64,000 nt of DNA, taken from NCBI GenBank assembly GCA_046484975.1, contig JAWOHX010000011.1:3611-67610 (forward strand). The letters run 5' to 3'. Shown here in pieces: positions 35,882-64,000 of this stretch; position 1 is the stretch's first letter; each line of letters begins with the position of its first letter. Made by a program: the position numbers and the translations under genes. The notes beneath the pieces were generated by a model, which was not told the origin of the DNA, did no database searches, and was given only the letters and a program-made list of their open reading frames with translations. Origin of the DNA: Clostridia bacterium. GTDB taxonomy: Bacteria; Bacillota; Clostridia; DUPQ01.

Positions 35882-36053
35882 CGGGAACATATTGGTTATA
35901 ATGCATAAAGTAGATATGCCATAGACAGCAGGAGCTTTAAAAAGCGTAACGACATCCGTCTTCCTGCCGAGGTGAGATTTCCTTTTGAAGGATGATATCC
36001 TCGTATGTCTGTGTATATACGGGGATTTTTATATAGTAAGGAGGTGTGGAAAA
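35882..36053 (+). promoter_or_regulatory. rplJ 5' leader (candidate L10(L12)4 autoregulatory leader)
   Basis: Untranslated 170-nt structured spacer between rplA and rplJ, at the position of the conserved L10 leader in Firmicutes. Ends in AGGAGG and the GTG start. Confidence 0.4.
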
Positions 36054-53098: not shown

Positions 53099-54058
53099 AT
53101 GGAATATATCAAAGAATTGTCCGATCGGATCAGGGAAAACATTGCCAAGGTCATCATTGGAAAGGATGAGGTCATTGACATCGTGCTGGCCTCCCTTTTC
53201 TCCTCCGGCCATGTCCTTCTGGAGGATGTTCCGGGATTGGGAAAGACGGTGCTGGCAAAAAGCCTCGCCAGGTCCATCGGTTGCGACTTCAAGAGGATCC
53301 AGTTCACTCCTGACCTCCTGCCTGGAGACCTGACTGGTGTAAGCGTCTACAATCAGAGGGAATCCGATTTCATTTTCCGGGAAGGTCCGCTTTTCACCCA
53401 GATTGTCCTTGCCGATGAAATCAACAGGGCCACTCCCAGAACCCAGTCTGCCCTTTTGGAATGCATGGAGGAACACCAGATTACCGTGGAAGGCAAGACC
53501 ATGATCCTTAAAGAACCCTTCTTTGTCATTGCCACCCAGAATCCCCTGGAGACCCAAGGCACCTTCCCTCTTCCCGAGGCCCAGATGGACAGGTTTTTCG
53601 TCAAACTGAGCATCGGTTATCCCTCCCATGGGGAAAGCATCAGCATCCTGGACCGCTTTGAAAAGGACAAACCCCTTGAACGGCTGGAAACTGTGGCAAC
53701 GGCCGAGGAAATTGTCAAGGTGCAGGAAATGATGAACAAGATATTCGTCAGCGACGACATCAAGGAATATATTGTGGACATCACCGAGGCCACCAGGGAG
53801 CATGCACGGCTGATCCTGGGACTTAGCCCGAGGGGCAGCATCTCCCTGATGAAAGCCGCCAGGGCATATGCGGCCATCCGGGGCAGGGATTTCGTGATTC
53901 CCACGGATGTCAAGGCCGTAGGAGTCTGGGTCATGTCCCACCGGGTAATGCTACGGGGTCATGCCATCACTTCCGGAGGAAAAGGGACCGCAGATGTCAT
54001 CAAAGAAATTTTTGACACCGTCAAGGTGCCCACAGAGGACATCGAAGGAGAAAAATAA
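53099..54058 (+). CDS. MoxR-like AAA+ ATPase
   Basis: Walker A (GLGKTVLAKSLARS), Walker B (LADEINRATP) and sensor motifs. 319 aa. Confidence 0.9.
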   Translation: MEYIKELSDRIRENIAKVIIGKDEVIDIVLASLFSSGHVLLEDVPGLGKTVLAKSLARSIGCDFKRIQFTPDLLPGDLTGVSVYNQRESDFIFREGPLFTQIVLADEINRATPRTQSALLECMEEHQITVEGKTMILKEPFFVIATQNPLETQGTFPLPEAQMDRFFVKLSIGYPSHGESISILDRFEKDKPLERLETVATAEEIVKVQEMMNKIFVSDDIKEYIVDITEATREHARLILGLSPRGSISLMKAARAYAAIRGRDFVIPTDVKAVGVWVMSHRVMLRGHAITSGGKGTADVIKEIFDTVKVPTEDIEGEK

Positions 54059-55180
54059 ATGGAACTGATTTTTATTGCAGTTCTGGTTATGACGTTCTTC
54101 CTGATTGAATTGGTGTTCTATAAATTTTTCCTTCTCAAGAACATGGAGTATACCCTTTCCTTCAGCCAAAAGCATGCATTTGAAAACGACGACATGTATG
54201 TGGATGAGGTCATCTACAACAAGAAACCCATCTATATCCCCTGGGTCAAGGCAGACATCCATTCGTCCAAATGGCTGGAATTTGCCAATGCCAGCTCGGT
54301 GATCATCGATGAGAGACGATTCGTCACCAGTGGATTCATGCTCAAGGCTTTCCAGAAGACAACAAGAAGATGGTATATGAAATGCACGAAGAGAGGAGTG
54401 TTTGATATTGACAACGCCACGCTGACCTGCGGGGATCTTCTGGGGCTGGTCACGGAATCCAAGGCTGTCCCTGTGAAGACCCGGTTGACCGTATACCCCG
54501 GCCTGGTGGATCTCAGCGAGACGTTTTTCAGCACCCGGGACATCATGGGGGATGCCATCGTAAAGCGATTCATCATCGATGACCCGTTCATTGTGAAAGG
54601 GACCCGGGAATATATGCCGGGGGATGCCATCAACAGAATCAACTGGAAGGCCACGGCCCGGCATGACAGGCTGATGGTAAAGGAAAACGACTTCACGGCG
54701 AAAATGGGGATCACCGTCCTGATGAACATCCAGTCCGCCGACAATGAGTTCAACATGGTGAAGAACAAGGATGTGGTGGAACTGGCCATCAAGGTCTCGG
54801 CCACCATCCTCAACAGGGGATATTCCACGGGGATGCCGTTGCGCTTCGCCACCAACGGGTGCGTCGTGGATCGAGACGATGAGATGGTTTTCTCCGAGAT
54901 CGGCAACGGGCAGGAACACTATATGGAGCTGCTGACAGTCCTGGCGCAGCTTAAATTGAAAAATGTCAGGGATTTCCCCATATTCGTGAACGCCCAGATG
55001 GAAAATATCCGGAACACCCAGGTCTATATCGTGACCGCATACTACAACGAGGATATTCTCGGCCTGGCCAGGGAGATGCAGAAGTCTTCCAACACCGTCA
55101 AGGTGCTGGTCCTGGACACCTACTCTGATGGAATGCCGGTGTCCGGGGATATCGAAACCTATTTCATGGGCAGGAAATAG
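54059..55180 (+). CDS. DUF58 (vWA-like) protein, MoxR partner
   Basis: N-terminal TM helix and the DUF58 core (REYMPGDAINRINWKATARHDRLMVKE). The ATG is 1 nt after the moxR stop. Confidence 0.85.
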   Translation: MELIFIAVLVMTFFLIELVFYKFFLLKNMEYTLSFSQKHAFENDDMYVDEVIYNKKPIYIPWVKADIHSSKWLEFANASSVIIDERRFVTSGFMLKAFQKTTRRWYMKCTKRGVFDIDNATLTCGDLLGLVTESKAVPVKTRLTVYPGLVDLSETFFSTRDIMGDAIVKRFIIDDPFIVKGTREYMPGDAINRINWKATARHDRLMVKENDFTAKMGITVLMNIQSADNEFNMVKNKDVVELAIKVSATILNRGYSTGMPLRFATNGCVVDRDDEMVFSEIGNGQEHYMELLTVLAQLKLKNVRDFPIFVNAQMENIRNTQVYIVTAYYNEDILGLAREMQKSSNTVKVLVLDTYSDGMPVSGDIETYFMGRK

Positions 55181-55193
55181 AAAGGAACGCACT

Positions 55194-56591
55194 GTGGAAA
55201 AGCAATATGACCTGAGAAGGAAGTTCATCCCTGTGCTCGCAATGACAGGCAGCCTTTGCGGTTTTTTCATGATGCTCTTCCACATGGTGGACAAGGATGT
55301 CAATGTTGTCCTGCAGAGCCTGATTTTCATCGGGTATCTGGTGGCAGGCACGCTGGCATCCCATCTGATCCGGTTGACCCGGGGTAAAAAAGGCATCGAT
55401 GTCATCAATCGGAATGAGAAAGACGAGGCCTACCTGATCAAGCAAAAAATGTATCTGCTGGCCATCCCGGTTTTCATCCTGGCGTTTCTCTTCACCCAGT
55501 CCATGGGAATCCTCTATGCCCTGGTCTATTCCTTTGCATATGGAACAGCCTTCCTCCTTGGAATATCCAACGGGCTTTTCGATTACAAGGACATGGTGAC
55601 CACCAACCTTCTCTATGTGGGGGTCATCCCCATCGGATTTTCCTTTGTTTATGCCTATTACGGTGCAAACATCCCGTTGACCAGCAATACCGCCTGGTTT
55701 TTCGGTTCCATGTACCTGCTTGCATACCTGTTGTTGATCAACAGGATGAAACTAAACAGCATCCTTTTCTTCCGGTCCTCCGTCAACGTGGAGAACAGCC
55801 GGAAGATCCGGATCCAGAACGACATCCTCATCGGGCTGTTCTATCTTCTCTATCTGGTGATTTTCAATTTCAGGCAGCTCATCAACTTCTCCTATGACAT
55901 ACTGTTGACGGTCTTCACCTATTTCCTCATCGCCATGCAGGCCATTATGGATTTTCTGCTGGCTGATACGAGGGGAGGGGATGTGCCCGGCGATCCGACC
56001 GGCGGACTGGACGCCTTTGAGCCTGTGGAGATGGCTCCATGGCTGACCTACCTGCTGTATGGACTTCTGATTGTGGCCTTTGCCATCGGGTTGGTATTTT
56101 TCATCATTTTACTGGTTCGGATCATCCGTAAAATCGTCAGGTTGATCATGCAGACTGTCTCAGGGGAGATGAACAGGAAATCATCAAAGAAAACCGTGGT
56201 GGCCCGGGAATATGAAGAAGAAAGCGTAATTATCCGAAAGGGCAAGACGCAGCACCCACTGCAGAAAAAAAGAAGATTCCACTACACCCTGAAGGAACTG
56301 ACGCTCATGCAGAATCCCACGGATAAGCTGCGGTATTTTTATGCCTTCGTCCTGGAACGGTTCCGTTACAAGAAAGTGGATTTCAGGGACAGCGACGCCC
56401 CGGAAGAGATTCTCGAGAAGATATCTGCATATGAAGGGGTGGACCAGCTCCGTGCAGACGGGTTCCCCGAGGTGACTACAGAATACCTGAGGGTTCGTTA
56501 CGGGGAAAAGGAGCCCGGGCTCCAGGTGGATGAGGAGAAGGCCAGGAGATACGAAAAAGACATCCAGCTGATCAAAACAGATAAAAAATAA
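55194..56591 (+). CDS. polytopic membrane protein with cytoplasmic DUF4129-like tail (third MoxR-operon gene)
   Basis: About 8 TM helices and a charged C-terminal domain. Positional equivalent of the transglutaminase/DUF4129 gene in MoxR-DUF58 operons. GTG start at 55194 is chosen to avoid overlap; the ORF itself opens at 55128. Confidence 0.55.
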   Translation: MEKQYDLRRKFIPVLAMTGSLCGFFMMLFHMVDKDVNVVLQSLIFIGYLVAGTLASHLIRLTRGKKGIDVINRNEKDEAYLIKQKMYLLAIPVFILAFLFTQSMGILYALVYSFAYGTAFLLGISNGLFDYKDMVTTNLLYVGVIPIGFSFVYAYYGANIPLTSNTAWFFGSMYLLAYLLLINRMKLNSILFFRSSVNVENSRKIRIQNDILIGLFYLLYLVIFNFRQLINFSYDILLTVFTYFLIAMQAIMDFLLADTRGGDVPGDPTGGLDAFEPVEMAPWLTYLLYGLLIVAFAIGLVFFIILLVRIIRKIVRLIMQTVSGEMNRKSSKKTVVAREYEEESVIIRKGKTQHPLQKKRRFHYTLKELTLMQNPTDKLRYFYAFVLERFRYKKVDFRDSDAPEEILEKISAYEGVDQLRADGFPEVTTEYLRVRYGEKEPGLQVDEEKARRYEKDIQLIKTDKK

Positions 56592-56693: not shown

Positions 56694-59132
56694 ATGCAAG
56701 AGAGTGTTAAAATTATAAAAATCAACAAACTTCCGTTGATTCCCCTGAGAGGATTGACGGTGTTTCCACATATGACCATCCATTTCGACATCGGCAGGGA
56801 CAAGTCCATCAAGGCATTGGAGAAAGCCATGGAGGACAACCAGCTGGTGTTTCTGGTCACACAAAAGGAAACTGCCATGGATGATCCGGAGACAGGGGAC
56901 ATCTATGAATATGGAACTGTTTCAAAAATCAAACAGTTGCTGAGACTGCCCGGGAAAACCATCCGGGTGCTCATAGAGGGGCTGGAGAGGGGCAGAATCG
57001 TCAGTTATGAGAAGACCCAGCCATTTTTTGAAGCGGAGATCGAACGGATCGAACCTGTTTTCAACAGCAGGGACAAGAAAAAGGAAGAGGCATTGAAACG
57101 CCAGGCAGTGGAAGCATTCGAGGAGTATGCCACACTTGCAGGCAGGGTTTCACCGGAAACGGTTTTTTCCATCATCACCACGGAGGACGCGGACAAGCTG
57201 TCGGATCTGATCATTGGAAGCATCTCCCTGAAAACGGAGGCCAAGCAGCAACTGCTGGAGGAGAACAATCCTGTCAAACGGTTGGACAAGATGCTGCCCC
57301 TTATTTTCGAGGAGATTCAGATCCTGGAACTGGAAAAGGACATCTCTACCAAAGTCAAGGGACAGATTGACGAGATGCAGAAGCAATATTACCTGAAGGA
57401 GCAGTTGAAGGTCATCCAGGACGAGCTGGGGGAGAACCAGCCGGAGGACGATGAGCTGAATGAATATTACGAAGCCCTGCGCGACAGGAAATTCCCCGTT
57501 GAAGTCCGGGAGAAAATTGAGAAGGAATTGAACCGCCTGAAAAAAATGAGCCCCATGTCGGCAGAGTCGTCGGTGATACGCACTTATGTGGAATGGCTGA
57601 TCCAGATGCCTTGGGATAAATCCACCCAGGAGAAACTGGACATCAGGAAGGCCCGTTTCATCCTTGAGAGGGACCATTACGGTCTCGCCAAGGTCAAGGA
57701 AAGAATCATCGAGTACATTGCCGCCAGAAAAATGTCTGAAGGGTTCAACGCCCCCATCCTTTGCCTGGTGGGCCCACCCGGGGTAGGAAAAACCAGCATC
57801 GCAAAATCCATCGCAGAAGCTGTGAACCGGAATTATGTTCGAATGTCTTTGGGCGGGGTACGGGATGAAGCCGAAATCCGGGGACATCGGAGGACCTATG
57901 TGGGTTCCATGCCCGGAAGGATTGCCAAGGCCATCGTCCAGGCGGAAAGCAGCAATCCCCTGATGCTTCTGGACGAGATCGACAAGATGAGCAGCGATTT
58001 TCGCGGCGATCCTGCCTCTGCCATGCTGGAGGTTCTGGATTCCGAGCAAAACTACTCCTTCCGGGACCACTACCTTGAGGTCTCCCTGGACCTTCGGCAG
58101 GTGATGTTCATCACCACCGCCAACAGCCTGGATACCGTTCCCAGGGCATTGGTGGACAGGATGGAGGTCATCGAGGTGTCCGGATACACCCCGGAGGAAA
58201 AGCTCAACATCGCCAAAAAATACCTGTTGCCCAAGCTTCTGGGAAAATACGGGCTGAATAAAAGACAGCTGAAGATCGGCAACCCTGCCATGATGGACAT
58301 CATCAACGGGTACACCCGGGAATCAGGTGTGAGAAACCTGGAAAGGGAGCTTTCCGCCATCCTGAGGAAAGCCACCACCCGTCTGGTGGAACAAAACATG
58401 GAAGGTGTTGTGGTGAACAGGGGCCATCTGGTGGAATTCCTGGGGCCAGTACGATATGAATACGAAAAAGCCCTCAAAAAGAACGAGATCGGCATCGCCA
58501 GGGGACTTGCCTGGACCCCGGTGGGAGGGGACACCCTGTCCATCGAGGTCAATGTGATGCCCGGAACCGGGAGTCTGGAACTCACCGGCCGTCTGGGTGA
58601 TGTCATGAAGGAATCGGCCAAGGCCGCCATGGGATACATCCGTTCCATGACAGAACGGTTTGCCCTGGAAAAGGATTTCTACAAGAAAATAGACATCCAT
58701 GTCCATGTTCCCGAAGGAGCCGTCCCCAAGGACGGACCCTCCGCAGGAATCACCCTGGCCACTGCCATTATATCCGCCCTCATGGGAATACCGGTCTTTG
58801 GCTTTGTGGCCATGACCGGGGAGATCACCCTTCGTGGAAGGGTCCTGCCCATCGGGGGGCTCAAGGAAAAACTCACCGCCGCCAGAAGGGCAGGGATCAC
58901 CAAGGTCATCCTGCCCCTGGCAAACGATAAGGATCTTTCGGAAGTCCCCGGTGAAATCCTCAAAGCCATGGAGATTGTGAAGGCCGCCACCATGGAGGAT
59001 GTGCTCAAGCATGCCCTGGCGGTGGATTATGCGAAAAACAACAGGGACCCGGGAAAAAGCGCAACAAAGCCCGCATATTTAAAAGGCGACCTGAAGGAAG
59101 GAATCGGCAACGGTCCGGATATCAGGGCATAA
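56694..59132 (+). CDS. lon: ATP-dependent Lon protease (LonA)
   Basis: N-terminal LON domain, AAA+ (GPPGVGKTS) and protease domain with the catalytic Ser ([10 protein letters not shown]) and Lys. 812 aa. Confidence 0.96.
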
Positions 59133-59206
59133 AAAAACAAGCGCTCCCTTTCCTTCCTCCTGGTTTACGGATATAATGTGAGGGAGGAAAAGAAGGAGAC
59201 TGGCAA

Positions 59207-59941
59207 ATGACAATCACAATCGGGATCCTCCTTTGCATGGGGATCCTGTTTTTCGCCAATTGGATACAGGGGGTATCAGGTTTCGGCCGGGGGCTCATCG
59301 CCATCCCCCTGCTGTCATTTTTCATCCCCATTGACCAGGTAATCCCAATGATGATCCTGACCAGCATCCTGACGACCTTGCTGATGTATCTGAAGAACCG
59401 CGAAAGCACGGACATCCGTAAAATTCTTCCCATGTCCCTGCTGGGCATCGTGGGAACCACGGTGGGTGTTGCCCTGCTCAAGGCGTTGCCGGTGTTCCAC
59501 CTGAAAATCATCATCGGCATCCTCATCATGCTCTTCGCCATTTTGATCGCCACAGGTTTTTCCATCCGGGTGAAACGGATGAAACTGGCTTTTTGCGTGA
59601 CAGGCTTCATCAGTGGGTTCCTCTCCGGTTCCTTGTCCATCGGCGGGCCACCTGTGGTCTTCCTTTTCCAGGGGATCCGGGAGGAAAAGGATGCCTTCAG
59701 GGGAAACCTGTCATTGTTCTTCCTCATCGTGTCCCTGTTCTCCATTCTCAACCTGTTTCTCAACGGGATGGTCTCCGGGGACATCCTATGGTACAGTCTG
59801 GTTTTCATGCCGGTGATTCTCCTGGGAACCCTTGCCGGACATCTGTTTTCCAGAAAGGTCAATGAAATTTTCTTTCGCAAGCTGGTCACAATCCTTCTGT
59901 TTCTCTCTGGAATGTCCGCGGTGTTTTTCGCACTGGTATGA
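59207..59941 (+). CDS. TauE/SafE (DUF81) family sulfite/sulfur-compound exporter-like permease
   Basis: Two-fold repeated 4-TM architecture with GxGGG-like motifs (GVSGFGRGL; SIGGPPVV). Confidence 0.8.
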   Translation: MTITIGILLCMGILFFANWIQGVSGFGRGLIAIPLLSFFIPIDQVIPMMILTSILTTLLMYLKNRESTDIRKILPMSLLGIVGTTVGVALLKALPVFHLKIIIGILIMLFAILIATGFSIRVKRMKLAFCVTGFISGFLSGSLSIGGPPVVFLFQGIREEKDAFRGNLSLFFLIVSLFSILNLFLNGMVSGDILWYSLVFMPVILLGTLAGHLFSRKVNEIFFRKLVTILLFLSGMSAVFFALV

Positions 59942-60012
59942 GGCCCCCGGGAAAATTATTTTACAAAAAATCATGATGGACTTATAATATAATAAAAAGT
60001 AAGGAGCATCCT

Positions 60013-61161
60013 ATGAAAACTGTAGCTGAGATCAATGAAAAAATCAGGAAAGGCAAGGCCATTGTGGTCACTGCTGAGGAAGTCATCGACATCGCCCGGG
60101 ACATGGGATACAGGAAAGCCGCGGAGAAAATCGATGTCGTCACTACCGGTACTTTCGGGCCCATGTGTTCCTCCGGCGTTTTCATCAATTTCGGCCACTC
60201 CAATCCTCCCATCAAGATGCAGAAAGTGAAACTCAACGATGTTCCCGCCTACGCCGGGATTGCCGCGGTGGACGCCTACATCGGCGCTACGGAGCTTTCC
60301 GAGACCAGGGGGATGGAATACGGGGGAGGCCACGTCATCGAGGACCTGGTGGCCGGAAAGGACATCAAGCTCTACGCAACTGCCTATGGGACCGACTGTT
60401 ATCCCCGGCGGGAGATCCTTACCTCCATCAATAAGCACAACGTGAACCAGGCCTATATGTATAACCCGAGAAACGCCTACCAGAATTACCCGGCCGCCAC
60501 CAATTCCACCAACAGGACCATCTACACATACATGGGGACCTTGTTGCCCAATTTCGGGAATATCACCTACAGCACATCAGGTGAATTGAGCCCCCTGCTG
60601 AACGACCCGTATCTGAGGACCATCGGCCTGGGGACCAAAATCTTTCTGGGAGGAACGGAGGGTTATGTGACCTGGCAGGGGACCCAGAACAATCCCAACC
60701 AGGAACGAAACGAGCGGGGGGTTCCCGTTTCCCTTGCCGGTACCCTGGCATTGGCCGGGGACATCAAGGGCATGAGCACACGATATGTCAAGGGGGCCAC
60801 TTATGAGAAATACGGACCAAGCCTGTTCGTCGGGGTAGGCATACCCATCCCTGTGATTGACGAGGATATGCTGGCCAGCACCGCAGTGACCAACAGGGAT
60901 ATCACGACTAAGTTGTCCGACAAGAGCGGAAATGAAAACCTGGATGTCTCATTCACCTATGAACAGCTACGCAGCGGTTGGGTGGAGTACAGGGGCAGGA
61001 AGGTCCCGACTGCACCATTGAGCAGCCTGCCACGGGCCAGGGAAATCGCCCAGGTACTGAAAAAGTGGGTGGCCATGGGAGAGTTTCTCCTGACTGAGGC
61101 ATCCACCACCCTGCAGAAGCCGGACATCATCAATCAACTGACCATAAGGGAGATCAAATGA
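60013..61161 (+). CDS. DUF39/COG1900 protein (homocysteine biosynthesis, aspartate-semialdehyde sulfurtransferase-like)
   Basis: 382 aa COG1900-type protein. Followed directly by a NIL-ferredoxin gene, the signature pairing of the sulfide-dependent homocysteine pathway. Confidence 0.8.
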   Translation: MKTVAEINEKIRKGKAIVVTAEEVIDIARDMGYRKAAEKIDVVTTGTFGPMCSSGVFINFGHSNPPIKMQKVKLNDVPAYAGIAAVDAYIGATELSETRGMEYGGGHVIEDLVAGKDIKLYATAYGTDCYPRREILTSINKHNVNQAYMYNPRNAYQNYPAATNSTNRTIYTYMGTLLPNFGNITYSTSGELSPLLNDPYLRTIGLGTKIFLGGTEGYVTWQGTQNNPNQERNERGVPVSLAGTLALAGDIKGMSTRYVKGATYEKYGPSLFVGVGIPIPVIDEDMLASTAVTNRDITTKLSDKSGNENLDVSFTYEQLRSGWVEYRGRKVPTAPLSSLPRAREIAQVLKKWVAMGEFLLTEASTTLQKPDIINQLTIREIK

Positions 61162-61162
61162 T

Positions 61163-61567
61163 ATGAAAAAATTGAAACTGAAAATGAGTTTTCATCAGGA
61201 TAATGTTGAAAAACCCGTGATATATGAGCTGATCAAGAAGTACAACCTGTTGTTCAACATCCTCCATGCCGACATCAACTACGGCAGCAAGGGGACCCTG
61301 ATCACGGAGATCCAGGGAGAGGAAGAGGACATCGAGAAGGCCATGTCATATCTCTCCGACGTAGGGGTCCAGTATGAGACCTACCTGAAAGCCATCCTCA
61401 GGGATGAGGATGAATGTGTGGACTGCGGTGCGTGTACTGCGGTCTGTCCCACCCGGGCCTTGAGCATGAACGAGGATGGATGCCTGGAATTTGACAAGGA
61501 AAAATGTGTGGTCTGCGAATTGTGCATCAGTGCCTGTCCACTGCGAATCATCCGCCTGGAACTGTAA
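61163..61567 (+). CDS. NIL domain + 2x[4Fe-4S] ferredoxin protein
   Basis: N-terminal NIL domain (VIYELIKKYNLLFNILHADINYG) and two CxxCxxCxxxCP motifs (CVDCGACTAVCP; CVVCELCISACP). Confidence 0.8.
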   Translation: MKKLKLKMSFHQDNVEKPVIYELIKKYNLLFNILHADINYGSKGTLITEIQGEEEDIEKAMSYLSDVGVQYETYLKAILRDEDECVDCGACTAVCPTRALSMNEDGCLEFDKEKCVVCELCISACPLRIIRLEL

Positions 61568-61568
61568 A

Positions 61569-62306
61569 ATGTATGAGAAGAGAAGCTATAGGGATCTGTT
61601 TGAGAACAAACTGACCTGGTTTGAAGTCAGTGTGGGCGAAACCGACCTGATGGTGGGGTGTTCAGCTGATTTGCAAAAAGAAACCCTGAGGGAGGTGCGG
61701 CGGCTTAGAAAATCCCTTGATTCCTTCATCAGGCTGCATCCCGAATTTTCCACATCCCTGGTTCCGCTGTCATATGAAGACGCCAACGGAATCATCCGCG
61801 ACATGGAACAGGCAGGCATCAAGGCAGGCACCGGACCCATGGCGGCCGTGGCTGGTGCCATCGCCATGCACATAGCGAACCGTCTCCGGGAACACTCAAC
61901 GGAAGTGTTCGTGGAAAACGGGGGGGATTTGTACATTTATTCCGAGGAAGACAGGCTCATCGGAATCCATGCCGGACAATCCGTGCTCAGCGGAAAATTC
62001 GCCATCAGGGTAAAAAAATGCCAATTGCCCATGGGTGTCTGTACTTCCTCCGCCACCGTTGGACATTCTTTGAGTTTCGGAAAAGCCGATGCAGCCACGG
62101 TTCTGTCCAGGGACGGCGCCCTGAGCGACGCCCTGGCCACAGCCCTGTGCAACAGGATCCAGGGTAAAAATGACCTGGGACCGGCACTGGAATGGGTGCG
62201 TTCCATTGAAGGGGTGTCGGGGGCAATGGCAGTAATGGGAGACACCATGGGAGCTGTAGGGGACATTGAACTGGTTCCATGGAACAGAAAAGAGGAGGAG
62301 TCATGA
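61569..62306 (+). CDS. UPF0280/ApbE-like family protein
   Basis: The ATG at 61569 sits 2 nt after the ferredoxin stop. 245 aa. Conserved Gly-rich segments (GTGPMAAVAGAIA). Family assignment is tentative. Confidence 0.5.
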   Translation: MYEKRSYRDLFENKLTWFEVSVGETDLMVGCSADLQKETLREVRRLRKSLDSFIRLHPEFSTSLVPLSYEDANGIIRDMEQAGIKAGTGPMAAVAGAIAMHIANRLREHSTEVFVENGGDLYIYSEEDRLIGIHAGQSVLSGKFAIRVKKCQLPMGVCTSSATVGHSLSFGKADAATVLSRDGALSDALATALCNRIQGKNDLGPALEWVRSIEGVSGAMAVMGDTMGAVGDIELVPWNRKEEES

Positions 62307-63115
62307 GGGAACAGATCCGGAATGCACAAAGGATTGTAGTGAAAGTGGGGACATCCTCCCTGACATTTGCGAACGGAAAAATCAATCTGATGAAAATGGA
62401 ACAGCTTTCAAGGAGGATTGTCAACATCGCCAACAGCGGGAAAGAGGTCATCCTGGTCTCTTCAGGTGCTGTCGGGGTGGGCATGGGTAAACTCAACCTC
62501 AGCCAACGGCCGGAGGACGTGGTGGAAAAACAGGCCATAGCAGCAGTGGGCCAGTGTGAACTCATGCACATTTATTCGAAATTTTTCTCGGAATACGGAA
62601 GGATTGTAGGCCAGATCCTGCTGACAAAGGATGTGGTCAGCAACGAAGCCACCAGTCATAATGCAAAGAACACGTTCAACAGCCTGCTGGAAAAAGGCAT
62701 CATTCCCATCGTCAATGAGAATGACTCGGTCTCCGTTGATGAACTCATATCCAGCGGGAATACGGGTTTTGGGGACAACGACACCTTGTCCGCCCTGGTG
62801 GCCGTACTGGTGAAGGCGGATCTTTTGGTCATCCTTACGGACATCGACGGGTTTTATGAAGGAAACCCCAGGGAGATCAAAGATGCCAGGATCATCCCCC
62901 TCGTACGGGACATCGACGACACCCTGCTTGGTTATGCCGGAGGCAACGGCTCCTTGATGGGGACCGGGGGAATGGTCACCAAGTTGCAGGCCGCCTCCAT
63001 TTGCATGGAGCACAACATTGACATGGCATTGATCAATGGAAACAGAATGGATAATATCCAGGATCTTCTGGACGGCCGGGAGTTGGGCACCTTGTTCAAA
63101 GGAAGGAAAAACTGA
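62303..63115 (+). CDS. proB: glutamate 5-kinase
   Basis: RIVVKVGTSSLT, VSSGAV and the amino-acid-kinase fold. No PUA domain. About 270 aa. Confidence 0.9.
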   Translation: MREQIRNAQRIVVKVGTSSLTFANGKINLMKMEQLSRRIVNIANSGKEVILVSSGAVGVGMGKLNLSQRPEDVVEKQAIAAVGQCELMHIYSKFFSEYGRIVGQILLTKDVVSNEATSHNAKNTFNSLLEKGIIPIVNENDSVSVDELISSGNTGFGDNDTLSALVAVLVKADLLVILTDIDGFYEGNPREIKDARIIPLVRDIDDTLLGYAGGNGSLMGTGGMVTKLQAASICMEHNIDMALINGNRMDNIQDLLDGRELGTLFKGRKN

Positions 63116-64000
63116 TGGATATGGAAAGACTGGGCAGGATGGCGAAGGATGCAAAGGTTTTTCTCAACGGCCTGACGGAACAGGAGAAAAACACCCTTCT
63201 CCGGAAAATGGCCCGGAGCCTGAGGGAAAACAGCAAAGCCATCCTGGAGGGCAACAGAAAGGACCTGGCAGATGCGACGGCCCAGACACGGCTGGACAGG
63301 CTCAGGCTCGATGATGGGCGGATCGAAGGGATGGCATGTGGACTGGAGGAACTGGCAGACATCAAGGACCCCGTGGGAGAAGTCATGGAGAGGATCCAAC
63401 GGCCCAACGGGCTTCTCATCGAGAAAGTCCGGGTGCCAATCGGTGTCATCGGGATCATTTATGAGGCCCGACCCAATGTGACCAGCGATGCCGCCGGGAT
63501 CTGTTTCAAAACAGGGAACGCCGTCATCCTGAAGGGCGGACGGGAAGCGTTGCACTCAAACAAGGCCATCACCAGGATCCTGCATGATGTCCTGGAGGCC
63601 GAGGGTTTCCCTGATGGATGCATTCAGCTTGTGGAGGATCCCAGCCGGGAAACCACCCTGGAGATGATGCGGCTGGACCGCTATATCGATTTGCTGATTC
63701 CCAGGGGAGGGGCTTTGCTCATCCGTTCTGTGGTTGAGAATGCCACCATCCCGGTGATTGAGACCGGGGTGGGAAACTGCCATGTATACATCGACTCACC
63801 GTCGGACCTGGAGATGGGGGTGCGTGTCATCGTGAATGCCAAGACATCCAGGCCTTCCGTGTGCAATGCGGCGGAGACTCTCCTGGTGCACAGGGACATG
63901 GCAAAGGATTTCCTGCCCGTGGCCTGTGAAGCATTGAAGGCGTCCGGCGTGGAGATTCGAGGCTGTCAGAAAACCCGGGACGTTGTCCCTTGGGTACTCC
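63115..64000 (+). CDS. proA: gamma-glutamyl phosphate reductase (3' partial, runs off window)
   Basis: ATG overlaps the proB TGA. VPIGVIGIIYEARPNVT and the catalytic Cys in NAKTSRPSVCNAAETLLVH. Confidence 0.9.
   Translation, partial: MDMERLGRMAKDAKVFLNGLTEQEKNTLLRKMARSLRENSKAILEGNRKDLADATAQTRLDRLRLDDGRIEGMACGLEELADIKDPVGEVMERIQRPNGLLIEKVRVPIGVIGIIYEARPNVTSDAAGICFKTGNAVILKGGREALHSNKAITRILHDVLEAEGFPDGCIQLVEDPSRETTLEMMRLDRYIDLLIPRGGALLIRSVVENATIPVIETGVGNCHVYIDSPSDLEMGVRVIVNAKTSRPSVCNAAETLLVHRDMAKDFLPVACEALKASGVEIRGCQKTRDVVPWVL

Follow-up and report, generated by a model that had tools for sequence, protein, structure and literature searches.

[quoted passage not shown] In the archaeon Methanosarcina acetivorans, L-ASST is proposed to make homocysteine from aspartate semialdehyde, sulfide and two electrons (PMC12068725, PMC5764234). 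It consists of MA1821, a COG1900a protein with a C-terminal CBS (SAM-sensing) domain, and MA1822, a 2x[4Fe-4S] ferredoxin that carries a fused NIL domain; the third component of the system is COG2122, represented by MA1715 in M. acetivorans and by DvMF_0044 in D. vulgaris (PMC5764234). The two near-universal cysteines of COG1900a are Cys54, which is essential, and Cys131 in MA1821 (PMC12068725), and a role in sulfur trafficking or persulfide formation has been ascribed to COG2122/UPF0280. Bacterial versions of the same triad are DvMF_1464/DvMF_0262/DvMF_0044 of Desulfovibrio, Dde_3007 of D. alaskensis, a DUF39 protein without a CBS domain, and DET0921:DET0919 of Dehalococcoides, which has been cited as a bacterial triad cluster (PMC5764234). 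Mutants of D. vulgaris Miyazaki in the DUF39, NIL/ferredoxin and COG2122 genes are methionine auxotrophs, genetics by which all three proteins are required for homocysteine synthesis, and homoserine is not an intermediate of the pathway (PMC5764234). That DUF39 genes lie next to those for ferredoxin and COG2122 had been pointed out in 2014 (PMC4045070). COG1900 also includes MMP16/ComF (COG1900d), which shares the fold family and converts sulfoacetaldehyde to CoM by an analogous aldehyde-to-thiol chemistry, and which L-ASST may partly replace (PMC12068725).

The window, a stretch of 64,000 nucleotides from a Clostridia metagenome-assembled genome, encodes the same three families as the M. acetivorans system, here in a bacterium. 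The triad is contiguous, like DET0921:DET0919, whereas MA1715 lies apart from MA1821-22 and the Desulfovibrio genes are scattered, as judged by locus numbers. Unlike the triads described from Desulfovibrio and Dehalococcoides, it is joined to proB-proA, an arrangement of which we found no mention in the pathway literature cited here. The features of the region are listed in the table. The sequence-only reading had delimited four ORFs, from tauE to the UPF0280 gene, and assigned their families; the four ORFs lie at those coordinates, and the profile searches bore out the families with E-values far outside the range of chance, the DUF39 product matching PF01837 over its full length. We conclude that the segment from position 59960 to 64000 and beyond very probably constitutes a single homocysteine-proBA operon, and that tauE is probably a separate bystander.

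Table. Features of the lon-proBA region (positions are those of the window)
Feature	Coordinates	Strand	Product	Profile match or other basis
tauE (ORF in the lon-proBA interval)	59207-59941	+	244 aa	PF01925, E 4.1e-33, profile positions 2-235 of 237
Promoter-like site, sigma-70 type	59960-59988	+		TTTACA-17-TATAAT, 11 of 12 consensus positions
DUF39/HcyBio (COG1900a) gene	60013-61161	+	382 aa	PF01837, E 4.6e-150, 499.8 bits, profile positions 1-349 of 349
NIL-ferredoxin gene	61163-61567	+	134 aa	PF09383 (NIL), E 1.8e-18, and Fer4 families
UPF0280/COG2122 gene	61569-62306	+	245 aa from the conserved ATG	NF003323 (PRK04334), 272.6 bits
proB, glutamate 5-kinase	62303-63115	+		TIGR01027, 312.8 bits (cut-off 186)
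proA, glutamate-5-semialdehyde dehydrogenase	63115-64000	+	5' part only (gene cut by the window end)	identity taken from relatives

The product of the DUF39 gene is the predicted catalytic subunit of L-ASST. Like Dde_3007 and in contrast to MA1821, it lacks a CBS domain, and a PDB sequence search found no solved homologous structure. An NCBI record 100% identical to it bears the name 'homocysteine biosynthesis protein'. Cys52 is kept in all 30 homologues and Cys129 in 29 of them; by position and conservation the two appear to correspond to Cys54 and Cys131 of MA1821.

The start codon of the NIL-ferredoxin gene lies 1 nt past the DUF39 stop codon, behind an AAGGGAG Shine-Dalgarno sequence. As in M. 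acetivorans L-ASST, the NIL domain is fused to a ferredoxin with two CxxCxxCxxxC motifs, whose eight cysteines are conserved in all 29 homologues. [quoted passage not shown] After a further 1-nt spacer follows the UPF0280 gene, the product of which is ApbE-like, scores just over the NF003323 cut-off of 271 bits and matches PDB entry 2o34 (E 5.4e-40); homologues in related genomes carry the precomputed label PF27030 AbpE_bact. Its Cys158 is invariant (26 of 26 homologues). Under the name COG2122, the UPF0280 family had been described before as the third component of the homocysteine system.

The order DUF39, NIL-ferredoxin, UPF0280 recurred in about 27 of the 32 genome loci, which came from Clostridia, Christensenellales, Bacteroidales, Spirochaetales and Altiarchaeota. 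This agrees with the earlier proposal that UPF0280 belongs with the DUF39-NIL pair, and the families and conserved cysteines, which match the published system, uphold the view of that pair as the signature of a sulfide-dependent route to homocysteine. Judged by these features, the triad is an ordinary copy of the known three-gene bacterial and archaeal homocysteine system, here joined to proBA. A bacterial triad as such is not new, since the three-gene cluster of Dehalococcoides was published previously. Across the window, Pfam searches of 37 ORFs outside 34-49 kb gave no match to the Cys_Met_Meta_PP, HTS or sulfite reductase families. Inspected by eye, the segment at 34-49 kb is a region of ribosomal protein, RNA polymerase and elongation factor genes.

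At the downstream end of the triad, the UPF0280 and proB genes share a 4-nt ATGA start/stop overlap, with the proB start behind a GAGGAGGAG Shine-Dalgarno sequence, and proB and proA overlap by 1 nt (TGATG). The proB gene of the window is a short form that lacks the PUA domain. The order triad-proB was also present in L001-L004, L034 and L045-L049 (L-numbers denote triad loci of other genomes); the proB genes of the relatives score 289-302 bits on TIGR01027, and they keep their place after the triad although the genes before it differ (five contexts, DUF39 identities of 66-77%). An Aldedh gene comes next after proB in L045-L047, and in L046 the gene in the place of proA reaches 578 bits with NF001221. 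As read from the overlapping start and stop codons, proB is translationally coupled to the UPF0280 gene. No convincing intrinsic terminator was found on the + strand within 60013-64000. Co-transcription of the cluster with the proline genes, suggested in the sequence-only reading, is likely, given junctions of 1, 1, -4 and -1 nt and the retention of proB in five contexts.

At the upstream end, the spacer of 71 nt between tauE and the DUF39 gene contains the promoter-like site, whose -10 hexamer ends 24 nt before the DUF39 ATG. An element of the form TTTACA-17-TATAAT or TATACT, 24-44 nt before the ATG, occurs in L001-L004, L034, L035, L045 and L046, in spacers that look otherwise dissimilar, and L046 keeps it despite a different upstream gene. 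From this match to the consensus, we propose the site as the putative promoter of the homocysteine-proBA operon. In L048 and L049, whose spacers were read by eye, a variant TTGAAT-17-TATAAT was seen; TTGAAT lies outside the pattern searched. The tauE-DUF39 spacer showed no significant RNA structure (z +1.04). A SAM, T-box or other riboswitch before the triad or tauE was considered and rejected: Rfam returned no relevant match at the gathering threshold in the whole window, in 11 related loci and in 5 more, nor in an E-value scan of 58900-60300. In the window, no clear terminator was found after tauE, and transcription from lon-tauE may still run on into the operon; in L001, a terminator-like hairpin follows tauE.

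The tauE product has about eight hydrophobic segments (19-mers) and thus the multi-pass topology of a TauE/SafE (TSUP, PF01925) permease, in line with its end-to-end family match. The TauE/SafE family is associated with sulfur oxyanions, and the permease could be a fourth component of the system, a dedicated importer that feeds sulfite, thiosulfate or hydrosulfide to the DUF39 pathway. Its gene lies on the same strand as the DUF39 gene with no strong terminator between them in the window, the adjacency is held in the closest relatives (L001-L004, L034, L035 and L045), and one TauE homologue (P0005, 33% identity) adjoins NIR_SIR (sulfite-reductase-like), rhodanese and Aminotran_5 genes. However, a tauE gene next to the triad was found in a single narrow clade only, that of DUF39 identities of 73% or more. 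There the whole block DUF58-x-lon-tauE-triad-proBA is syntenic, and an adjacency confined to a syntenic block is explained by recent common descent. TauE orthologues (39-47% identity) occur only within this lon-tauE-triad-proB clade, and identity to homologues outside it is at most 33-35%. In the next lineages, at 66-71% DUF39 identity, tauE is missing from four of four loci, in which the triad-proB order stays: MFS and peptidase C69 genes precede the triad in L046 (71%), lon and then an opposite-strand MatE gene do so in L047 (70%), and other genes take the tauE position in L048 and L049. Near 28 more distant triad loci, TauE was not detected by tblastn or with an HMM built from five orthologues. 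Likewise, the five closest TauE homologues that were examined all lack a neighbouring DUF39 gene, the four other than P0005 lying in unrelated gene contexts, and a metagenome scan with the TauE alignment for independent TauE-DUF39 pairs returned the same clade and one short unrelated contig only. The conserved promoter-like site also lies between tauE and the DUF39 gene, a terminator-like hairpin stands after tauE in L001, and H2S passes membranes without a carrier. We therefore consider a dedicated importer unlikely; TauE is a neighbour that shows no conserved association with the homocysteine genes, and it is probably not part of the system. Of the four-gene system put forward in the sequence-only reading, the three genes of the known triad stand, whereas the permease, expected to be conserved with the DUF39-NIL pair, accompanies it in one shallow clade and is absent from L046-L049 and the 28 other loci.

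The junction with proBA raises the question of whether the two modules interact. ProB and ProA produce a semialdehyde by way of an acyl-phosphate, which parallels the chemistry of aspartate kinase and Asd, and these enzymes could supply a semialdehyde, either aspartate semialdehyde or glutamate-5-semialdehyde, to the COG1900 enzyme. Both the translationally coupled junction and the persistence of proB after the triad in different contexts would fit such a functional link. Against it, ProB and ProA clear the equivalog cut-offs of the proline enzymes by a wide margin (the ProA score being that of L046), the triad-proB link is absent from all 28 loci with 58% DUF39 identity or less, and in L048 and L049 proB lies 330-390 nt from the triad and proA is not adjacent. 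Such a pattern would be expected of ancestral synteny that is decaying slowly, or of a common operon for amino-acid biosynthesis. It is very unlikely that the triad and ProB/ProA share or exchange a semialdehyde at all, be it by promiscuous supply of aspartate semialdehyde or by thiolation of glutamate-5-semialdehyde, which would yield a new thiol amino acid, and we find it most improbable that the link serves to feed the COG1900 enzyme. In a weaker variant of interaction between modules, TauE might bring in a sulfur species in those genomes of the shallow clade, where tauE is present.

Finally, COG1900 includes the CoM-forming MMP16/ComF and TauE/SafE members are linked to sulfoacetaldehyde-derived products, but the idea that the COG1900 protein is another aldehyde sulfurtransferase, for example a CoM-synthase-like enzyme acting on sulfoacetaldehyde, with the permease handling a sulfonate, is barely credible, because the protein scores 138 bits on TIGR03287 (MMP16), far under the cut-off of 364 (289 of 391 profile positions aligned), has no Pfam Fer4 match within its 382 aa and is thus of the COG1900a and not the MMP16/COG1900d type, in which the COG1900 domain harbours a ferredoxin insertion and the conserved cysteines lie elsewhere, carries the COG1900a cysteine pair, is accompanied by a separate NIL-fused ferredoxin, as in L-ASST, and by COG2122, the partners of the homocysteine system, and has no match to sulfonate-metabolism families among the neighbouring genes examined.

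The gene identities, the conserved cysteines, the gene order and its conservation, the junctions and the conserved promoter-like motif are direct observations. For the preferred reading, a homocysteine-proBA operon with tauE as a bystander, we infer the transcription start, the enzyme chemistry and the regulation as follows, the chemistry of the triad being carried over from homologues that are about 50% identical or less. The sigma-70-type promoter would drive the triad and then the translationally coupled proB and proA. COG2122/UPF0280 may help to capture sulfide and load the sulfur as a persulfide, and Cys52 of the COG1900a protein would pass it to the aldehyde carbon of L-aspartate-4-semialdehyde, as modelled on the published homologues. 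The NIL-ferredoxin is proposed, by analogy, as the electron donor of L-ASST: its two [4Fe-4S] clusters would give the two electrons needed to reduce the intermediate to homocysteine, the thiol product. Its NIL domain is a possible methionine-sensing regulator and would be the candidate sensor in a system with neither a CBS domain nor a riboswitch. TauE would be a separate anion permease, placed by chance between lon and the operon in one shallow clade.

The importance of these results beyond correct annotation is slight. They confirm, at the level of gene content, that uncultured Clostridia would make homocysteine by the homoserine-independent DUF39 pathway, a route that used to be taken for a methionine gap by automated pathway tools (PMC5764234). 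Hosts of the system typically lack canonical homoserine-based routes, although such a lack does not strictly define it. Should MetA/MetX and MetY/MetB routes be present in the genome, the triad would not be the only route to homocysteine but a redundant one. The results also caution against assigning the neighbouring TauE permease to the homocysteine pathway. The small additions to the known system are a conserved triad-proBA operon and a putative promoter without a riboswitch; they could guide expression studies or the choice of a compact five-gene cassette for heterologous work.

The four open reading frames that the sequence-only reading had described upstream of proBA were all located on the + strand at the positions it gave, and its family assignments, including COG1900/DUF39, were borne out by profile searches (see the table of features). 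Reading of the sequence gave 71 nt between tauE and the DUF39 gene and 1-nt spacers at both the DUF39/NIL-ferredoxin and NIL-ferredoxin/UPF0280 junctions. UPF0280 is joined to proB by a 4-nt ATGA overlap, with the ribosome-binding site GAGGAGGAG preceding proB, and proB and proA meet in a 1-nt overlap, TGATG.

Features located in the window
Feature	Position	Strand	Length	Basis
tauE	59207-59941	+	244 aa	PF01925, E 4.1e-33, end-to-end
DUF39/HcyBio	60013-61161	+	382 aa	PF01837, E 4.6e-150, end-to-end
NIL-ferredoxin	61163-61567	+	134 aa	PF09383 NIL, E 1.8e-18, plus 4Fe-4S families
UPF0280/COG2122	61569-62306	+	245 aa	NF003323/PRK04334, 272.6 bits (cut-off 271); PDB 2o34, E 5.4e-40
proB	next gene after UPF0280	+		TIGR01027, 312.8 bits (cut-off 186)
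proA	after proB; continues past window end
Candidate promoter	59960-59988			TTTACA-17-TATAAT, sigma-70 consensus match 11/12
lon-tauE spacer hairpin	59141-59203			-22.4 kcal/mol, z -2.0
Genes upstream of lon	53099-56591			MoxR-type AAA_3 ATPase; DUF58 protein; 487-aa membrane protein without Pfam match
Ribosomal protein L10 leader	35901-36040			RF00557, 73.3 bits; sole window Rfam match at gathering threshold

[quoted passage not shown] Homocysteine synthesis in Desulfovibrio alaskensis requires the DUF39 protein Dde_3007, whose orthologues are often encoded beside or fused to a ferredoxin, and often beside COG2122 (PMC4045070). All three proteins are required in D. vulgaris Miyazaki, where homoserine is not an intermediate, and Dehalococcoides DET0921:DET0919 is cited as encoding the same pathway (PMC5764234). 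[quoted passage not shown]

The window DUF39 protein agrees with L-ASST rather than with MMP16: it scored 138 bits on the MMP16 model (cut-off 364), and a Pfam scan found no internal ferredoxin domain. Cys52 was kept in 30/30 homologues and Cys129 in 29/30, their equivalence to Cys54 and Cys131 of the Methanosarcina acetivorans subunit MA1821 being positional; all eight cluster cysteines of the NIL-ferredoxin were kept in 29/29 homologues, and Cys158 of the COG2122 protein was invariant (26/26). Families, cysteines and published pathway uphold the proposal that the DUF39/NIL-ferredoxin pair is a signature of homocysteine biosynthesis, and an NCBI record 100% identical to the DUF39 protein already carries the name "homocysteine biosynthesis protein". 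In a close relative (P0055, 73% identity, on a 4.5-kb contig), DUF39 and NIL-ferredoxin form one 519-aa polypeptide. This could be a natural fusion or an artefact of assembly; it is consistent with the two acting as subunits. By analogy with homologues in the literature, COG2122 would aid sulfide capture and persulfide loading, the conserved N-terminal cysteine of COG1900a would pass sulfur to aspartate semialdehyde at its aldehyde group, and two electrons from the two [4Fe-4S] clusters would yield homocysteine; methionine feedback may come from the NIL domain.

Archaeal L-ASST has a SAM-sensing CBS domain, whereas the window protein is without it, as in Desulfovibrio. In three loci (Altiarchaeota L020, 7341-7958; also L021 and L029) a divergent gene for an HTH and CBS-pair regulator lies just 5' of DUF39, and this regulator may take over the SAM-sensing of the DUF39-fused CBS domain of methanogens.

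Among the 37 window ORFs scanned with Pfam, which lie outside 34-49 kb, no Cys_Met_Meta_PP, HTS or sulfite-reductase family was found, only housekeeping genes. By eye, the 34-49 kb ORFs, next to the L10 leader, look like genes for ribosomal proteins, RNA polymerase and elongation factors.

When each GTDB species was represented by a single genome, a scan yielded 32 loci. In ~27 of them, covering Clostridia, Christensenellales, Bacteroidales, Spirochaetales and Altiarchaeota, tblastn with the window proteins found the order DUF39, NIL-ferredoxin, UPF0280; in loci without TauE the recurrent neighbours were housekeeping genes (YchF, Sua5/TsaC, LMW phosphatase, PBP). In Omnitrophota and Planctomycetes MAGs (L023, 6245-8004; also L026 and L027) Thi4-family and cysteine-synthase-like PALP genes lie directly 5' of DUF39 and UPF0280 is missing from the surroundings, so that sulfur-assimilation genes are grouped differently there.

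The sequence-only reading had proposed a four-gene bacterial version of the pathway with TauE as dedicated transporter. The three triad genes are real, but form an already known module, and TauE as a fourth component found no support. Of the 32 loci, only the closest four, L001-L004 (DUF39 identity 75-77%), had a TauE, and these also retain lon 5' and proB 3'; an HMM made from five TauE orthologues and run on every ORF of the set added none, leaving 28 loci without it. Apart from one short unrelated contig, metagenomes searched with the TauE alignment yielded the same clade only, in the order lon-tauE-DUF39-NIL-Fd-UPF0280-proB. Outside the clade, the closest TauE homologues shared only 30-35% identity, and the five with context checked were all in unrelated surroundings. 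At one of these loci (L038, 2397-6714) a 33%-identical homologue, P0005, ends a same-strand run of cysteine-desulfurase-like Aminotran_5, rhodanese, Fe-S protein and sulfite-reductase-like NIR_SIR genes, which suggests that some members of its branch serve sulfite handling. In a metagenomic relative (L033, 6872-7576) a 234-aa ORF, which by its look we take to be an IS5-type transposase, lies directly 3' of tauE, where the rest of the clade has DUF39, and not far from the end of the contig.

Intermediate-distance DUF39 homologues were then compared in Pfam-annotated context.

Loci of intermediate-distance DUF39 homologues
Locus	DUF39 identity	Gene order
L045	73%	DUF58-x-Lon-TauE-HcyBio-NIL-Fd-AbpE_bact-ProB-ProA; block same as window
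L046	71%	MFS-peptidase C69-HcyBio-NIL-Fd-AbpE_bact-ProB-ProA
L047	70%	Lon-MatE (opposite strand)-HcyBio-NIL-Fd-AbpE_bact-ProB-ProA
L048	69%	UvrA ... HcyBio-NIL-Fd-AbpE_bact, 330-390-nt gap, ProB; without ProA
L049	66%	as L048

TauE is gone wherever local synteny breaks (L046-L049). Recent common descent, rather than selection for keeping the genes together, accounts for its place beside the triad. The triad-proB link persists, with ProB in each of the five upstream contexts, and the kinases are bona fide ProB (TIGR01027, 289-302 bits). The Pfam-unmatched protein encoded upstream of lon in the window accompanies DUF58 in L045 as well. The triad-proB spacers of L048 (7293-7618) and L049 (7299-7687) open with a conserved motif, AAAAAAAGGCCAAACCACCGGGGGGTT...GTCTGGCC, and have no Rfam match.

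The promoter-like element in the tauE-DUF39 spacer is a candidate promoter of the operon, its function being inferred from sequence. It recurs 24-44 nt 5' of the DUF39 ATG in the relatives L001-L004, L034, L035, L045 and L046; the spacers are otherwise dissimilar, and the upstream gene of L046 is unrelated. Spacers of L048 and L049, read by eye, carry a TTGAAT-17-TATAAT variant. A loose form of the pattern occurs only 12 times on both strands of the 64-kb window. The DUF39 leader would be ~20-40 nt, the spacer is unstructured (z +1.04), and no Rfam family, neither S-box nor T-box, was found in this region or in 16 related loci. No clear terminator was seen after tauE in the window, so read-through from tauE is possible; L001 has a hairpin there. 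In the lon-tauE spacer hairpin, the arm rich in pyrimidines, CTCCCTTTCCTTCCTCC, is paired to GGGAGGAAAAGAAGGAG, the purine-rich region of the tauE ribosome-binding site. The hairpin could terminate lon transcripts or hide the Shine-Dalgarno sequence of tauE; relatives, with lon-tauE spacers of 8-92 nt, do not share it.

Given junctions of 1, 1, -4 and -1 nt and no convincing + strand terminator in the DUF39-proA region, one transcript very likely runs from DUF39 through proA, which, with the persistence of the triad-proB link, supports the suggested co-transcription with proline biosynthesis. The cluster is a real, correctly recognised homocysteine-biosynthesis module, a known three-gene system in a new host. 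The proposed fourth component is unsupported; the triad-proBA co-transcription, supported and conserved within the lineage, is a modest new detail.
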